Source: a virus
Taxonomy: Duplodnaviria; Heunggongvirae; Uroviricota; Caudoviricetes
Length of the DNA stretch: 19,066 nt
Direction: 5' to 3' (one strand)
IMG/VR virus record: IMGVR_UViG_2698536657_000009
Shown: piece by piece, positions 9,001 through 15,000 of the stretch
Position numbering within the stretch: position 1 is the first letter of the stretch
How the letters are laid out: each line of letters begins with the position of its first letter
Made by a program: the position numbers

Positions 9001-12000
9001 GGTGACTGCGCCAGCTCAGAGTAATCCGCATTAAGAACAGCATCTGCTGCCGCCATTGCACTCTGCCCCTGTGCACTGGCTGTGGAATGGGTGATCAGGC
9101 CCGCCTGGAATAAATCCGGCATTTTTTTATCGACAGCTTCTGCTGCCAGTGCCGTGGCTCTTTCCGGCTGCATCCCTGCCGCGATGTATTTTTTCTCCAG
9201 CCCGGCGGTCAGCATTTTTCGCAGTGTGACATCACCCACCTTTTTAGCCACACCGCCAACAACCATATCAGGTACAAGCGCACCAATCAGGTTTACACCC
9301 TTCGCCACCCAGACCGCAGAATCATCATAGCCTTCGGTCATCGGCGTATTCAGCGCACGAACAGCACCCGGCGACATCTTACCGGTCAGCCATTCATCCG
9401 AGGCTTTAGCACCATCACTGACTGACTTGCCTGTGACCTTCAGACCTTTACCGACAGTATCAGTCACCGCGTTTTTCCCTGTTCCATCGGGAATGTTTTT
9501 AATCGCATCTCCAACAGAAGGTGGTGCGCCCAGTTCCTTTTGCGTGGAGGAAGGCGGCATGTAAACATCCGTCATGAAAGACGACAACCCGGCAAGCGTT
9601 TTTACAGGATTATTTACAAGTGCATCACCGAGTCCACGGGCCATTTCCCCTGTTCCCCGGACGGACTGGGCGAAACCTTTACCCATTGTTGGCAATACAT
9701 CACCGAGGCTGAACGATGTGCTGTGATCAATGGCATTCTGCGGGTTGCTGAAAAAATCCTGCCAGTAATTTTCTCCCGGCTGCTTAATGTTCAGGCTGCT
9801 GCGGTTCTGGTTACCCAATTGCGCTTCAGGGCGCTGCTCATCTGAAAAAGCCATACAGACTCCAGTAAAAAAAAGCCCGACACGATGGTCGGGCGTAAGT
9901 GAACGATATTAACGGGGAGCGCGTTACTGCCGCATATCTTTACTTCATCCAGCCTTTGATCTTCTCGGCAGCTGCGGAAGCGCTATAATCCAGCGCCTTT
10001 TCATGCTCTGCCTTTTTATCCCGGAGGTGATTCTGGTAATAAATTTCCACCTCCTTTTCACGACCAGGTTCCAGCAAAGCAGGCGCATTGGCGGCAGCCT
10101 CTTTTACAAACTCCTGTTTAACCGGATCGCCCGCCGCCCACGGCTGCCACTTCTGTAAAAGCTGTTGCGTTTTCCGTTGCTGAACTTTCTGTTGATGCGG
10201 CAGTGAATCATACGCTGCTAAAAACTCATCATTCGCAGCCTGAGCATCACGGCCATCCTTGATCGCCTGAGCCACTACTTTGCTGGCTTCCTTCTGAAGC
10301 TCTTTCAGAGAAAGTCCCTGCTGCTTCGGCATGAAATAACCATAATTTTTCGATATCTCTGCAAATTTGCTGCGATCCCTGACCTGAGCGATAGCCTTAT
10401 CAACGGGTATCGCCAGCACGGTTTGATCATCAGGGTGCGCACTGCCGTATTCTGTTACAGGTTTATGCGCGGTGGAGCCATCGCTGTATGTGAGATCAAG
10501 GCCAATAAGTACGTACCCTTCCTGCTGCGCCGGTACGATACTGCCAATCCTGGCCTCTTTTATCGTTTTTTCCCCGGTTGAATCAGGCATGCCAATACGC
10601 TGTTGTAGTTCCGGGGCAAACACGCCGGAAAGCACATCGAGATTTTCCGGGGTATTCAGCGAATCGATCGCCATGTCCGGCTTATCACCAAAGATTTTTT
10701 GCAGGTTGATCACGGCCTGACCCGCTTTCGCTGCATAGCCTTCGTTTGACATAAGAATTAATGGATGTCCCTTTGGCAGCTGCCCGAACAGACGCGTTGC
10801 AGCCTCCTGATCGCCAGCCTCAATTGCTTTTCCAATCGCTTCCATTAGTGGCTGGCTATGGGCAATCATATCGTTATACTCAAGCCGTCGCTGGTTGTAT
10901 TTCTGCAACTGGAGTCGTTGCTGTTCCATCCCCAGCGACGCATTCCGGTAATTCTGGTTGGCGTTAAACTCCCTTTCCTGCAGTGTGTAATTGCGGTCAT
11001 CAACTTTGGCTCTGTAATCAAAGTTCCGCTGATCAACGTCTTTATTATGTTCAAACTGAGACTGCGCAAATTCAAAATCGCGCTCGTTATTTTTCTGTTG
11101 CTGAGCAAGCTGTGCTTCTCGCAAACCAAGCTCCTTACGACGGGTCATTGCCTGATCAACAGTGCTGAATCCAGCAAGTAACCCCTGTGCAAATCCGCTC
11201 ATTCACCACTCCTTAAAACAAAGCGCCTGCAATGCCGCCAATTACTGCACCAGCAACAGCGCCGACGGCTGTCCCCACTACCGGTACTGCTGAACCAACA
11301 GTCGCCCCGATAGTGGCCCCCGTACCAATGCCCGTACCGATATTCTGTTTTTTCTGAGCTTTCTGTTGAGCAGCCAGTTGTTTATTTGATGCCTCAATCT
11401 CTGTACGTCGTCTGTCTGCGTCACTTATTCCCTGTAATGCCTCACGCCGCGACTGATTTGCAATATCCAGTAAACCGTATCCCATATTGCCCCCTTACGC
11501 TGCCACCAGTTGTCCGCCAACACTCAGTTTCTGTCTTGCCGGTGCAGAAGCCCCCGTCAGAATATTCATCTGGCGATCCTGTTCGGCTTCACGGATACCA
11601 TTTTTCGCGCCAGCAATTGCCAGGGCATTACGTAACCCCAGCGTATTACTGTCGGGATTATCCGGGCGGTTTACCCCGTATCTCGCCATCTGGTTATCCT
11701 GCGCCATCTGCGCTGTACGGAGACTGGAAGTGGCAAGGCCTCCCACCCGTGCAAGCTGTGCATTCATCAGACTGTTGTTCTCCCCAAGGTCAGCCAGCCT
11801 TGCTACACGGGGTAAATATCTGGTGCGCCAGTCGTCGTATTGCTGGCGGGTCAGCGCTGCGGATGTCTGCCAGTCCCCCTGAGGGCGGGCTGCTCCGGTA
11901 TAACCGTATCTTGCAAGTGTTTCGTATTTACCGTACTCCATAATCACAGTCTCCAGTTCTGAGCCTGATGCTGAATGGCATTAGCGCCGGTGCCAGGTGT

Positions 12001-15000
12001 TTTAGCACCGCCTCCGCTACCGCCAGCCTTATGCATCGCATACGCACCTGCCGCACCCAGACCAGCGCCAACAAGAGAGGCTCGCCCCTGCTGTTTCGTA
12101 AACGCCGCCTGTGCATCCGATTTAGCTTTTGCCAGACTGCTGTCTGCCAGAGAGTTAAAACTCTGTAACGCATCCGCCTTCTGACCAGAACCGAGAGCAG
12201 CAACATCCTGTAGCCCGGCAACATACTTATCTGCCTGCGACACCTGCCCCCGTGTGGTTGTGTCAATCTGCCCGGTCACCTGGTCGCTTTGATTTGCATC
12301 CATTACCGCATTAAAACGACCACTGGATGGGTCAACGCCGGACTGAGCAAGATTACCCGCCAGCTCCCTTCGCGCTTCACCAAACTGTTTCTGATAACCA
12401 AGATTTGTTGTGCCAGCGATATTTTCGTACTGCTGCTCACTGTTAAGGTCATCGACCTTTTCCATGAAGTTATCTTCTGCCGGACGGAGGATTTTTTGAT
12501 AATCCTGCCACCCTTTCCAGGCCACTTCTTCCTGCGCTATTTGCGCTGCTGTTGGTTTTACTTTGGTATCACCACCGCCTTTACTTCCACCCATAATGGC
12601 CCCCTGGATAACAAAAAACCCTGCCGGAGCAGGGTCAGAATGTGAATTACAATGTTGGTTTAAACACAATGATGAAAACTATAGCAGTCAGACCGCTATC
12701 CTGAACACCATGAAGCCATCCTCATCATCCGGCATTCGCTCAAAGCCCAGACGTTTTCCCAGCCGGATAAATCCCCGCCTTGCCGTATGAAATTCAGCCC
12801 AGCGTCCGCCAGCCAGACGGGTTAATGTCTTCACCTCCGGCAGATAACGCTCAACGCTGTTACTCCCCGTACACACGCCCAGCAACACCAGAACATAAGG
12901 GATACCATCAGCACTGAGCACAGAACGCAGCACCAGAAAGCCATCAGGTGCCTCAAAACAAAACGCCTGCTTTTTAAGGCAGGCGTCTTTAACTTCATTC
13001 ATAAATTCAGGGTTGCGGGAATTTCTCACCACACGCTGCATATACCGGAGAATTTTATCGTTCATTCTCTCACCTGAAACGGGTGCCATATCGGCTGAAC
13101 CTCAGCAACCAGTTGACGGGGACTTTCGTCCCCGCCGCGGTTTTCCTACTGCTTACACTGTAAGAACGCCGCAAACTCCGCTCCCCACAAATTCAGCCGG
13201 AACTCACACAACGAGCCGTGTAACATCCAGATGGTGAAGATAACCGTCATACAAATTGTGACGGTGATAAGCGATTTTTGCGACATAGCGCTTGCCTCCT
13301 GAGTGGAGAGGCGCTAACCTTCTACTTGTCAAGGTACGAAGTGTTAGGGCCTCGGGTTAACGTTAAGTTGACTCGGGGCCTTTCCACATCAGGCCTTCAG
13401 GTTCTCCCTCCAGCCATCAGCCGAAAGGCACCCACGCATAATTTACGGTTTTTGCCCTGTACGGGCAATAAAAAACCCGCCATCACAGCGGGTAGTAAAC
13501 GGTTACCGGATACAGGTCAGAATTTCAGGCCAATGCCAGCAGTAACGCCACTCGTGCGCCAGTCGCCAGAGCCGGAACCTTCGTAAGCCACATCCAGTGT
13601 AACACTCTCATTCAGGTTAAACTGTGCACCTGCAGCCCACGCAAGGGAGGTTTTTTTCGTGCTGTTGCTTTCAGAAAATCCGCCACTACTGTTAATATTG
13701 TCCTTAATTTTCAGGTCAGCGCTAACTTTAGCAACGCCCATCCCTGCCATCGCATATAAACTCATGTACTGATTAACCCGCCATGAAGGCCCCGCTAACA
13801 GACTCCAGTAATTCGCCCTGATATCCGTTCTGGCAGAAGCTGCCGGATTCTTAATCTTCCTGCTATGATCGGCTGACTGCACATCAATAAATGTCTGTGA
13901 GTTAGTGAGAGAACGCGTCCATGTAAAAGAGGTGATAACGCCAAAATCATCCGTTATCTCGTAGCGATACCTGATATTAATGCCCTGTGGATTTTTATCC
14001 TTGCCTTCATATCCACTGACCCGACCATCTGTATATTCGCCCAATGAAGAAAAGTAGTTTCTGTTGACGAAATGACTGAAAGTCTCCCTGTTATGAGCAG
14101 TCGCATCCTTTACAAAATCCTTCAGTCCCGGAAACTGAAAGTGCGCATACCCCAGAGAAATTGTATGGTTTCCTTCTGCTGCATGTGCAGATAAATTTAC
14201 ACAGGCAATCCCGGAGATTGCACACACAACCAGTGTTGCTATACTCTTCATTTAAGATATCCTGTATTCAGATAACACGCTAAACTTTTTAATAATACAT
14301 CTTTTTAGACATTTTAAATGAATATTAAAGACTCGCTTCAACTAATCATATACTGATGTATTAATAACCAGGACCTTATCTATATACGGCTTTCGAATAT
14401 CCCATGTTGCACCACCGGAATAATGCTCACAGGAATATATTTTATTTCCTGTAGCACCAGTGGATGTGGTATAAATCGGTCGATCATAAGGAGTTCTTTT
14501 CCAGTTATAATACCCGACCAGTGCAGGCATGATTGCGCATGGATATCCAAGGTCCTTTTCAAATTTGATATCAACAGGTATTAACTTCGCGTCAAGCAGC
14601 ATCATTTCGCCATGATAAATCATCTCACCGTCCGGGTTATACATGGCGATACCATACTCAGAAGGTGGAGTAACCATATTCGCGAAAGCATAAACCGTCG
14701 TAACACCAGGGTTCGTTCCCCTGACAATTACATGAAGCCTTAGTGCATGATATCCATCAATCTGTTCATGCGTGTACATGACATCGGCCTTCTTCTCTGT
14801 TCTGATAAAGAAAAAACAACTTTTGCCTGACGGGATTGATGTTTTAAAAAAAGACTTTTCAGTCGCCGGTATGGTGCCTTTGTTGATCAGACACTGCGGC
14901 GTAAAACCTGGACTTATCCATACGCTGCCATCCGGCTTCATAATGCTCAAACCATACATGACACTTATCCCCAGAATGTATAAATATAAGATCCCATACC

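Follow-up and report, generated by a model that had tools for sequence, protein, structure and literature searches.

A four-gene cassette beside a giant polyvalent gene in Stx-type prophages as a probable ejection-protein module

Introduction

Short-tailed Shiga toxin (Stx) phages spread Shiga-toxin genes among Escherichia coli. Here we analyse four small genes, encoding proteins of 216, 148, 90 and 420 amino acids (aa), that lie next to a giant gene in the IMG/VR virus record IMGVR_UViG_2698536657_000009 (Caudoviricetes); the whole 19,066-nucleotide (nt) stretch of DNA that was analysed is called the window. The window is the distal end of the late operon of a prophage of the 933W/Sp5/phi24B type (Sepvirinae), and every sizeable open reading frame (ORF) lies on its minus strand. 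We consider it probable that the cassette is the small-subunit part of an ejection-protein (internal virion protein) module whose large subunit is the giant polyvalent protein.

Read along the minus strand, the gene order is nozzle, needle, two small genes, lom, a hok/mok-type gene, a 133-aa gene, the four-gene cassette, the giant gene, and the start of a YadA-like gene. The region at 9800-13150 shares 93% identity with Escherichia phage ArgO145 and matches 186 phage records, nearly all of them from Stx-converting phages or related short-tailed ones. Of 5426 complete E. coli genomes, 424 have prophages that match it as well.

Organization of the cassette

The four genes lie on the minus strand at 12594-11944 (216 aa, ATG start), 11941-11495 (148 aa, ATG start), 11485-11213 (90 aa) and 11202-9940 (420 aa), all as called in the original prediction, which was made from the sequence alone. 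The stop-to-start gaps within the cassette are 2, 9, and 10 nt. The 133-aa gene (13089-12688, minus strand) lies upstream, and the giant gene of 2795 aa follows at 9854-1467 on the same strand.

Each of the four genes has a Shine-Dalgarno (SD) site: AGGGGG at 12605-12600 for the 216-aa gene (duplex energy -9.4 kcal/mol), GGAG at 11954-11951 for the 148-aa gene (-6.4 kcal/mol), AAGGGGG at 11496-11490 for the 90-aa gene (-11.2 kcal/mol), and TAAGGAG at 11215-11209 for the 420-aa gene (-8.8 kcal/mol). The last two overlap the TAA stop codons of the 148-aa and 90-aa genes, respectively. Energies are for the duplex with the 3' end of 16S rRNA; at random positions of the same strand they average -3.4, with -8.4 as the 5th percentile. 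Three sites are strong by this measure, at or past the 5th percentile, and the 148-aa site is moderate. The proposal that strong SD sites sit at or over the preceding stop codons is borne out at three sites for strength and at two for overlap, and is too generous for the 148-aa gene. Because the gaps are only 2-10 nt and SD sites lie over stop codons, translation of the cassette genes is probably coupled; tight gene spacing is also seen in distant relatives. Coupling had further been taken to mean a fixed stoichiometry, but spectral counts from phage phi24B, given below, suggest that the 90-aa product is much scarcer than the others.

The giant gene adjoins the cassette but is not coupled as the four are, because the 85-nt spacer before it holds a terminator-like hairpin (9894-9875, minus strand; 7-bp stem with 6 GC pairs, followed by T8). 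The same consensus scan places a second hairpin with a T-run between the 133-aa gene and the cassette (12636-12617, minus strand; 8-bp stem with 5 GC pairs), which is presumably, by analogy with lambdoid phages, read through by the Q-antiterminated late transcript. A scan for sigma-70-like promoters found none inside the cassette region.

The encoded proteins

The 216-aa protein is all-alpha and is a homologue of Sp5 ORF76 and phi24B gp51. It has a short hydrophobic Gly/Ala stretch at residues 173-187, then GGSGGG, and a weakly hydrophobic C-terminus. The 148-aa protein, a homologue of Sp5 ORF77 and phi24B gp50, is its distant paralogue; the two families align by hhalign over 118 columns (probability 93%, E = 2.4e-7). 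The 90-aa protein, a homologue of Sp5 ORF78, starts with an amphipathic helix, followed by a Q/K-rich linker and, at the C-terminus, a glycine zipper of ~40 residues that ends ...GGIAGALF and reaches a Kyte-Doolittle 15-residue maximum of 2.09; its matches to Pfam Gly-zipper families are all sub-threshold. The Gly-rich C-termini foreseen for the 90-aa and 216-aa products are both present.

The 420-aa protein is a homologue of Sp5 ORF79 and phi24B gp48. From the N-terminus it is predicted to comprise a disordered GxAxGFLAGF motif, a helix of ~115 residues, a helical domain, a small conserved beta domain (~204-266), and C-terminal helices. It had been described as rich in coiled coil; its AlphaFold2 model (predicted local distance difference test score, pLDDT, 82.8) is mostly helical with one continuous helix spanning residues 13-128. 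Compared with solved structures, the model has no fold relatives beyond generic long helices. The protein belongs to a small family (66 representatives at 50% identity); this diversity comes from an exhaustive representative search, as two word-indexed searches were dominated by near-identical E. coli and Aeromonas entries.

None of the four proteins has an above-threshold match in Pfam, NCBIfam, or the PDB by sequence or profile searches, and the same searches, examined for homology to ordinary tail-assembly proteins, found none. The names 'bacteriocin', 'CheZ', and 'tape measure', which databases give to homologues, found no support.

The giant protein is a homologue of Sp5 ORF80 and phi24B gp47 and has the Pfam domains LPD5, LPD1, MuF_C, and LPD38, all well above threshold. 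Large polyvalent proteins carry multiple LPD/effector domains per chain and are predicted to be packaged effectors (Iyer et al. 2017); the giant fits this class, with several LPD/effector domains and a gene beside virion genes. Its C-terminal ~950 aa are 40% identical to the giant of Vibrio phage D80, and the other domains vary among lineages.

Conservation and synteny of the block

The block is kept in seven lineages—Sepvirinae, Aeromonas phage phiARM81mr, Vibrio phage D80, and the contigs L054, L062, L063, and L064—as genes for proteins of ~130, 200, 120-160, 80, and 420-540 aa, followed by a giant of 2643 to >4891 aa. In the other lineages it usually lies directly downstream of the nozzle and needle genes. 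Distant 420-aa homologues led to phiARM81mr and ~100 Vibrio phages, which have BLASTP homologues of the 133-, 216-, 148-, 90-, and 420-aa proteins in the same order, then a giant of 3066-3190 aa. The four further lineages show the same arrangement with giants of 2643, 2848, 3189, and >4891 aa, whose domains differ (ART-PolyVal with LPD38; LPD5/LPD1/LPD39; InPase with LPD39). The 90-aa gene is conserved in all seven lineages, in lytic and temperate phages, at a fixed place within the structural operon. Among phage records, the 216-aa protein matched 291 and the 420-aa protein 288, with identical organism breakdowns, and in all but a few of 48 Sepvirinae contigs the six genes are all present with constant spacing; prophage decay or a contig end seems to account for the rest.

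The predicted co-occurrence of the cassette with the giant gene held across the seven lineages; the genes were not met without a giant, with the sole exception of the fusion protein P0141 described below. The idea that they occupy an accessory locus does not stand: the block is the conserved distal end of the structural operon, merely parted from the tail genes, in Stx-type phages, by lom and hok.

The conserved unit includes the upstream 133-aa gene as well as the four. A homologue of Sp5 ORF75, it is the first gene of the block in other lineages: in Aeromonas phiARM81mr (E = 1e-28), Vibrio D80 (6e-5), and contig L054, its homologues directly precede that of the 216-aa gene. Its product has no Pfam or NCBIfam match and contains 3 Cys, unlike the proteins encoded downstream. 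ORF75 was non-essential in the Sp5 deletion study, and the rows examined of the phi24B virion proteome include no ORF matching the 133-aa homologue. The 133-aa product is probably neither a virion protein nor one of the ejected set. Its position is taken by a GNAT acetyltransferase in L064 (7881-8342) and in Bcep22-, GP4-, and POI1126-type phages (e.g., L056 22156-22587); a relation between the 133-aa protein and GNAT was considered, and hhalign found none (E = 0.33).

Homology to Bcep22-type virion proteins

More distant relatives of the cassette are found in Bcep22-type phages. The 216-aa protein matches phrog_611 at 9e-117 and phrog_8003, annotated 'virion structural protein', at 4e-8; the PHROG matches are reciprocal, with Bcep22 gp70 matching phrog_611 at 3e-11. 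A hidden Markov model of the 216-aa family scores 36-48 bits on Bcep22 gp70, POI1126 gp26, PEp14 gp24, and Gamede gp39. The shared feature is a gp70-like helical core with a G(V/I)(D/N)PxSG motif, in which G86, P89, S91, and G92 are invariant in the alignment, and the 216-aa and 148-aa profiles match the same core of Bcep22 gp70. Judged by sequence, the two proteins are paralogues of each other and homologues of gp70 and its counterparts in Ralstonia GP4-like, Erwinia PEp14, and Ochrobactrum POI1126 phages. The four had been described as belonging to no recognisable family; this agrees with the Pfam, NCBIfam, and PDB searches and needs amending for the 216- and 148-aa proteins, which group with Bcep22 gp70-like virion proteins (phrog_8003/611).

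The Bcep22-type long forms end in a glycine-zipper tail (...GGLGTIAGAGIMAF) that resembles the tail of the 90-aa protein. In many of the long-form homologues (proteins P0307-P0423) a Peptidase_S74 domain follows the zipper segment (e.g., L057 18530-19738 and L058 22805-24118), which hints that the gp70-like family forms trimers from which the chaperone is cleaved off.

The GxAxGFLAGF motif of the 420-aa family also recurs in Bcep22 gp74, PEp14 gp25, and POI1126 gp27, at 11-16 bits, a score reached by 0 of 300 shuffles. The gene for the motif-bearing protein is directly upstream of the giant in Bcep22 and one or two genes upstream in POI1126 and PEp14. In the Bcep22-type layout the nozzle gene and small genes come first, then one for a protein of 280-440 aa, one for a virion protein of 400-530 aa, and one for a 'DarB-like' giant of 4500-4900 aa.

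Virion proteomics and genetics of close relatives

Phage phi24B, a close relative rather than this exact prophage, has been studied with cryo-electron microscopy (cryo-EM) as well as virion proteomics in a 2026 preprint. Virion mass spectrometry, the check that had been suggested for the cassette, detects homologues of all four products there. Peptide-spectrum matches (PSMs; total/batch-sample) are 1634/179 for gp48 (421 aa, the 420-aa homologue), 523/82 for gp51 (216-aa homologue), 129/83 for gp50 (148-aa homologue), and 13/6 for an 86-codon ORF (90-aa homologue), compared with 2226/101 for the portal and 702/42 for the nozzle. Per residue, the PSMs of gp48 exceed those of the portal. Batch PSMs divided by length and scaled to a portal of 12 copies give rough copy numbers of 37 for gp48, 32 for gp51, 48 for gp50, 6 for the 86-codon ORF, and ~23 for the giant gp47, a crude estimate that places known components within ~2-5 fold.

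Ranked by PSMs, the giant gp47 is second among phi24B virion proteins; it is missing from the cryo-EM model and was proposed in the preprint as an ejection protein. The phi24B data set also includes about 36,000 emptied particles. The tail model, as the abstract describes it, consists of the portal, two adaptor rings, nozzle, lateral fibres, and needle. Nowhere does the main text refer to gp48, gp50, or gp51; gp48 is labelled 'Transcription factor?', and a 'bacteriocin homologue' was set aside as a contaminant on annotation alone. Both labels look like annotation artefacts. When PDB chains were compared with the 216-aa and 420-aa family profiles there were no matches, though the nozzle of Ralstonia phage GP4, a homologue of the window's nozzle, was found (8jov, E = 2e-53). 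The phi24B data place the four products in virions but outside the resolved capsid and tail model.

Genetic evidence comes from a deletion study of phage Sp5, in which ORF76-80 correspond to the 216-, 148-, 90-, and 420-aa genes and the giant. Deletion of ORF79 or ORF80 gave no plaques and no lysogens, and both deletions were complemented in trans; DNase-resistant DNA was packaged as in the wild type. The ORF76 deletion mutant infects, but lysogenises very poorly. Even on wild-type Sp5 particles, tails were visible only occasionally. In Sp5, then, the 420-aa and giant genes are essential for infectivity and not for DNA packaging.

Links to established ejection proteins

The first link to a known ejection protein is in the 90-aa protein, whose family tail aligns with the extreme C-terminus of P22 gp7 (...PWGAAIGGGIGLLGSLF) with an hhalign probability of 95% and E = 3e-8, at 42% identity over 38 columns. 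The 90-aa family profile scores 23.4 bits on gp7, and the maximum in 1000 composition-preserving shuffles was 10.8.

The second link is a natural fusion. In P0141 (1386 aa), residues 4-264 correspond to 1-259 of the 420-aa protein (E = 8e-22), and the stretch 911-1380 to residues 136-598 of P22 gp16 (36% identity, E = 6e-77). Its gene (L052 10001-14161) shares an island with genes for an integrase, AlpA, a P4-like primase, and Bro-N; the island may be a phage satellite with an ejection-type protein of its own. Two further candidates were rejected. P0137, an apparent fusion of a 90-aa-like N-terminus with a 420-aa-like protein, belongs to a decayed prophage, has a C-terminus that cannot be aligned with the family, and looks like a frameshift; the N-terminus of P22 gp20 (GGFLAGIG) recalls the 420-aa motif at only 3.3 bits, a score equalled or exceeded in 4 of 300 shuffles.

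The third link is compositional. The four proteins and the giant (2795 aa by itself) total 3669 residues without a single Cys, and Cys is also missing from every cassette or giant homologue checked, with giants of 2643-4602 aa (loci L050, L051, L054, L055, L056, L062, L063, L065, and L066). P22 gp7, gp20, and gp16, T7 gp15, and N4 gp50, gp51, and gp52 also lack Cys, and six other window proteins encoded upstream have 19 Cys in 1659 residues (~1.1%). The absence of Cys would fit proteins that cross the oxidising periplasm unfolded.

Gene order points the same way. Ejection operons in general encode a membrane-active protein of ~200 aa, then a helical protein of 430-980 aa, then a much larger protein, beside tail genes; the window's order of small (216/148/90 aa), medium (420 aa), and very large (2795 aa) fits this pattern.

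Proposed function and mechanism

The original prediction saw in the cassette and giant a possible envelope-spanning assembly akin to ejection-type virion proteins, and the ejection-type part of this is supported by virion mass spectrometry, synteny, the links to gp7 and gp16, and the finding of no tail-assembly homology. In the mechanism we propose, the four genes would be expressed late within the structural operon, with translation probably coupled, and their products would be loaded into the T=9 head, with copy numbers roughly in the tens, alongside the giant. Once the needle is released, the proteins would exit by way of the portal-nozzle channel, either before the DNA or along with it. 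The 90-aa protein would then insert its glycine-zipper tail into a host membrane, as would the 216-aa protein its weaker one. Membrane insertion is the role proposed for P22 gp7 and T7 gp14. The paralogous 216- and 148-aa helical-hairpin proteins, together with the long-helix 420-aa protein, could build or extend a gp15/gp20-like conduit across the periplasm; the Cys-free giant would come next as a component resembling gp16 or a virion RNA polymerase, bringing variable effector domains into the cell. The 216- and 148-aa pair may be partly redundant, which would explain the viable single deletions.

A broader proposal, which we hold tentatively and would rate somewhat below even, is that cassette and giant form a distinct and widespread type of podophage DNA-ejectosome, found in Stx, Aeromonas, and Vibrio phages and in a fused form in Bcep22/GP4-type phages. 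In this type, gp7-like roles would be split over a paralogous pair and a glycine-zipper peptide, a fold-novel long-helix protein of 420-540 aa would form the conduit, and a Cys-free polyvalent giant of 2600 to nearly 4900 aa would be threaded through it, delivering interchangeable effectors.

Several points weigh against an ejection role. Location in the head, exit on infection, and membrane entry are what we infer rather than the outcome of direct experiment, and conduit formation and the division of labour among the four proteins stand on the same footing. The likeness to gp7 spans only ~38 residues of a glycine-rich tail, and in the reverse comparison, made with a narrow gp7 profile, a score is reached by the Vibrio member (17 bits), not by the window's 90-aa copy (-1.6 bits). 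Full-length homology to P22 gp7 was not found: the 216-aa family reaches a non-significant E of 0.03-0.06 against gp7, and phrog_598, 'DNA ejection', is matched by none of the four. By hhalign, the 216-, 148-, and 420-aa families have no similarity to T7 gp13-15, P22 gp7/gp20/gp16, or N4 gp51/gp52. The AlphaFold2 model of the 216-aa protein shows its helical hairpins with low confidence (pLDDT 59) and is too uncertain for a fold search. Many long-form relatives of the 216-aa protein carry Peptidase_S74, an intramolecular chaperone domain otherwise typical of fibres and spikes. Classical P22 ejection-protein mutants are said to form tailed particles of normal appearance. In Sp5, ORF77 and ORF78, the 148- and 90-aa homologues, are dispensable, and ORF79 and ORF80 were placed under tail formation after an anti-tail-fibre antibody failed to label the mutant particles.

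Alternative explanations

The alternative that survives best, though we think it unlikely, is that the small proteins are adaptors or scaffolds that load the giant effector into the capsid and take no part in a DNA conduit. Phage P1 offers a precedent: its giant antirestriction protein DarB gets into heads only with the help of Hdf, DarA, DdrA, and DdrB. In related phages the giants bear the annotation 'DarB-like antirestriction', some with methyltransferase or ddrB-ParB domains; polyvalent proteins are predicted to be packaged effectors; the cassette is invariably paired with a giant polyvalent gene, whatever the domains of the latter; and the paper on phage JC1 suggests that its uncharacterised virion proteins may be equivalent to the Dar helpers. 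However, the 420-aa and giant genes are essential on the same K-12 background as that of induction, where antirestriction should not matter, and the four proteins contain no Pfam Dar domains—a result of a Pfam scan only, as the P1 sequences were not compared directly. The gp7-like membrane tail and the gp16-like fusion point instead to a role in entry. Loading and ejection roles are not mutually exclusive.

A slightly less probable alternative assigns the 420-aa protein and the giant to building the short tail on the portal or keeping it stable there, with the smaller proteins as accessories or chaperones. This is the published view of the Sp5 study, which rests on the DNA-filled ORF79 and ORF80 mutant particles that escaped antibody labelling; the position of the genes downstream of nozzle and needle is in keeping with it, as is the Peptidase_S74 domain, known from trimeric fibres, at the end of many long-form 216-aa homologues. 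Against this, the phi24B tail model as described in the abstract does not include these proteins, and the giant gp47 is stated to be absent; the PDB has no match to the 216- or 420-aa family profiles even though the GP4 nozzle is deposited; and the estimated copies, in the tens, are above those of tail components. The loss of fibre labelling could also be secondary, if internal proteins stabilise the portal-tail junction, and visible tails were rare on wild-type Sp5 particles too.

That the four are accessory lysogenic-conversion genes (morons), such as a 90-aa bacteriocin or membrane toxin with its partners, is very improbable: databases do name the 90-aa protein 'bacteriocin' and the neighbouring lom, hok, and YadA-like genes are morons, but the Pfam Bacteriocin_IIc match covers the Gly-rich segment only and scores 17.3 bits against a cut-off of 27.1, no double-glycine leader was seen on reading the sequence by eye (no scan was run), the region has no promoter-like site of its own, and the gene is fixed in the structural operon of seven lineages with its product in phi24B virions.

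Neighbouring genes and variation among relatives

Upstream of the block, the window encodes a nozzle of 563 aa and a needle ('tail tip fibre') of 422 aa. The tail genes are separated from the conserved 133-aa/cassette block by an Ail/Lom outer-membrane gene (14251-13517, minus strand) and, within 13090-14251, by a host-killing gene of the Hok/Gef type, known from the annotation of ArgO145 and RefSeq relatives; a terminator-like hairpin at 13493-13475 falls in the same insertion region. The lom/hok insertion is absent from the Aeromonas and Vibrio relatives, in which the tail genes adjoin the block directly; lom and hok are inserted morons of Stx-type phages that part the block from the tail genes. 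Directly downstream of the giant, at the prophage end, a YadA-like gene of the trimeric autotransporter adhesin type (1-1380, minus strand) runs off the end of the window. A second YadA-like copy, placed after hok and before the 133-aa gene, is present in some related prophages, and an autotransporter peptidase of the S6 family is encoded nearby in the related prophage L060. Masked bases (N) at ~18765-18845, upstream of the nozzle gene, give runs of X in the ORF translations there. Scans of the window for tRNAs and Rfam families returned no matches.

Among the Sepvirinae loci L002-L049, the 133-, 216-, and 148-aa proteins are mostly 94-100% identical to those of the window, the 90-aa protein 67-100% (mostly through differences in zipper length), and the 420-aa protein 75-90%. 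This uneven divergence suggests mosaic exchange, or quicker evolution of the downstream half of the block. In a group of Stx2a phages of ~65 kb (LC616032, LC616037, and similar) the match to the 420-aa protein does not begin until residue 82, and a second one lies elsewhere in the record. In the same set, which includes the loci L042, L047, L048, and L049, some contigs stop right after codon 82 of the 420-aa gene, and L042 and L047 have a deletion from the 133-aa gene into the 420-aa gene. Prophages with a broken 420-aa gene may be unable to make infectious particles, since the Sp5 homologue is essential.

Significance

The virion proteomics of phi24B and the view of its giant as an ejection protein are already published; what is new here is the proposal of an ejection role for the four small proteins, together with the paralogy of the 216- and 148-aa proteins and their homology to gp70, the gp7-like tail of the 90-aa protein, the gp16 fusion, and the Cys-free set. 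Assigning the four proteins to the ejection machinery would provide concrete targets against Stx-phage transmission and could reconcile the 'tail formation' phenotypes of Sp5 with structural data. One conserved module links T=9 podophages of ~60 kb—Stx-type, Bcep22, GP4, PEp14, and Vibrio/Aeromonas phages—and would be well suited to asking how megadalton protein cargo passes a channel of ~35 Å, the width reported for N4. Cys-free composition may also serve as a simple genomic marker of ejected virion proteins.

Comparison with known systems

As far as sequence comparison can tell, the cassette is not homologous to the ejection sets of T7, P22, and N4, save for one tail motif and one fusion; the likenesses below are mostly ones of organization. 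The closest analogy is the N4/DEV (Schitoviridae) cassette of gp52 (150 aa), gp51 (644 aa), and the giant virion RNA polymerase gp50 (3500 aa). Both systems encode small helical proteins followed by a giant of ~3000 aa or larger, belong to T=9 podophages, and are wholly Cys-free, and in both the giant is plentiful in virions yet invisible in reconstructions. They differ in that there is no sequence similarity between them (hhalign E > 0.1), and in that the window giant has variable polyvalent domains (LPD5, LPD1, MuF_C, LPD38) in place of an RNA polymerase; there are also two small genes in N4/DEV, whereas the window block has four or five.

The P22 proteins gp7 (229 aa), gp20 (471 aa), and gp16 (609 aa) are likewise encoded by adjacent genes of rising size after the tail genes of a temperate podophage, and are Cys-free. 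Two features tie them to the cassette more directly: the tail of the 90-aa protein resembles that of gp7, and a natural fusion joins the 420-aa protein's N-terminal module with a gp16-like domain. In contrast to P22, gp7-like features are apparently spread over three window proteins, and the large subunit is 4-5 times the size of gp16.

The P1 Dar system (Hdf, DarA, DdrA, DdrB, DarB, and Ulx) shares with the window a giant multi-domain protein and small partners, packaged in the head in P1 and, on our reading, probably here as well. The P1 Dar proteins are dispensable on non-restricting hosts, whereas the Sp5 homologues of the 420-aa and giant genes are essential.

The Bcep22/GP4/PEp14 phages are the ones with true homologues, namely the gp70 core and the gp74 motif, in the same position between nozzle and giant. 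The Bcep22 record annotates gp70 and gp74 as virion-associated, and its 'DarB-like' giant gp75 has 4602 aa; JC1 virions, by mass spectrometry, contain a DarB-like giant and several unnamed proteins. In Bcep22-type phages the N-terminal extension, core, and glycine-zipper tail belong to one long protein, to which Peptidase_S74 is often added; in the window cassette the equivalent is split and duplicated over three genes. Bcep22-type phages also interleave GNAT and PAPS-reductase genes, whereas the window cassette does not.

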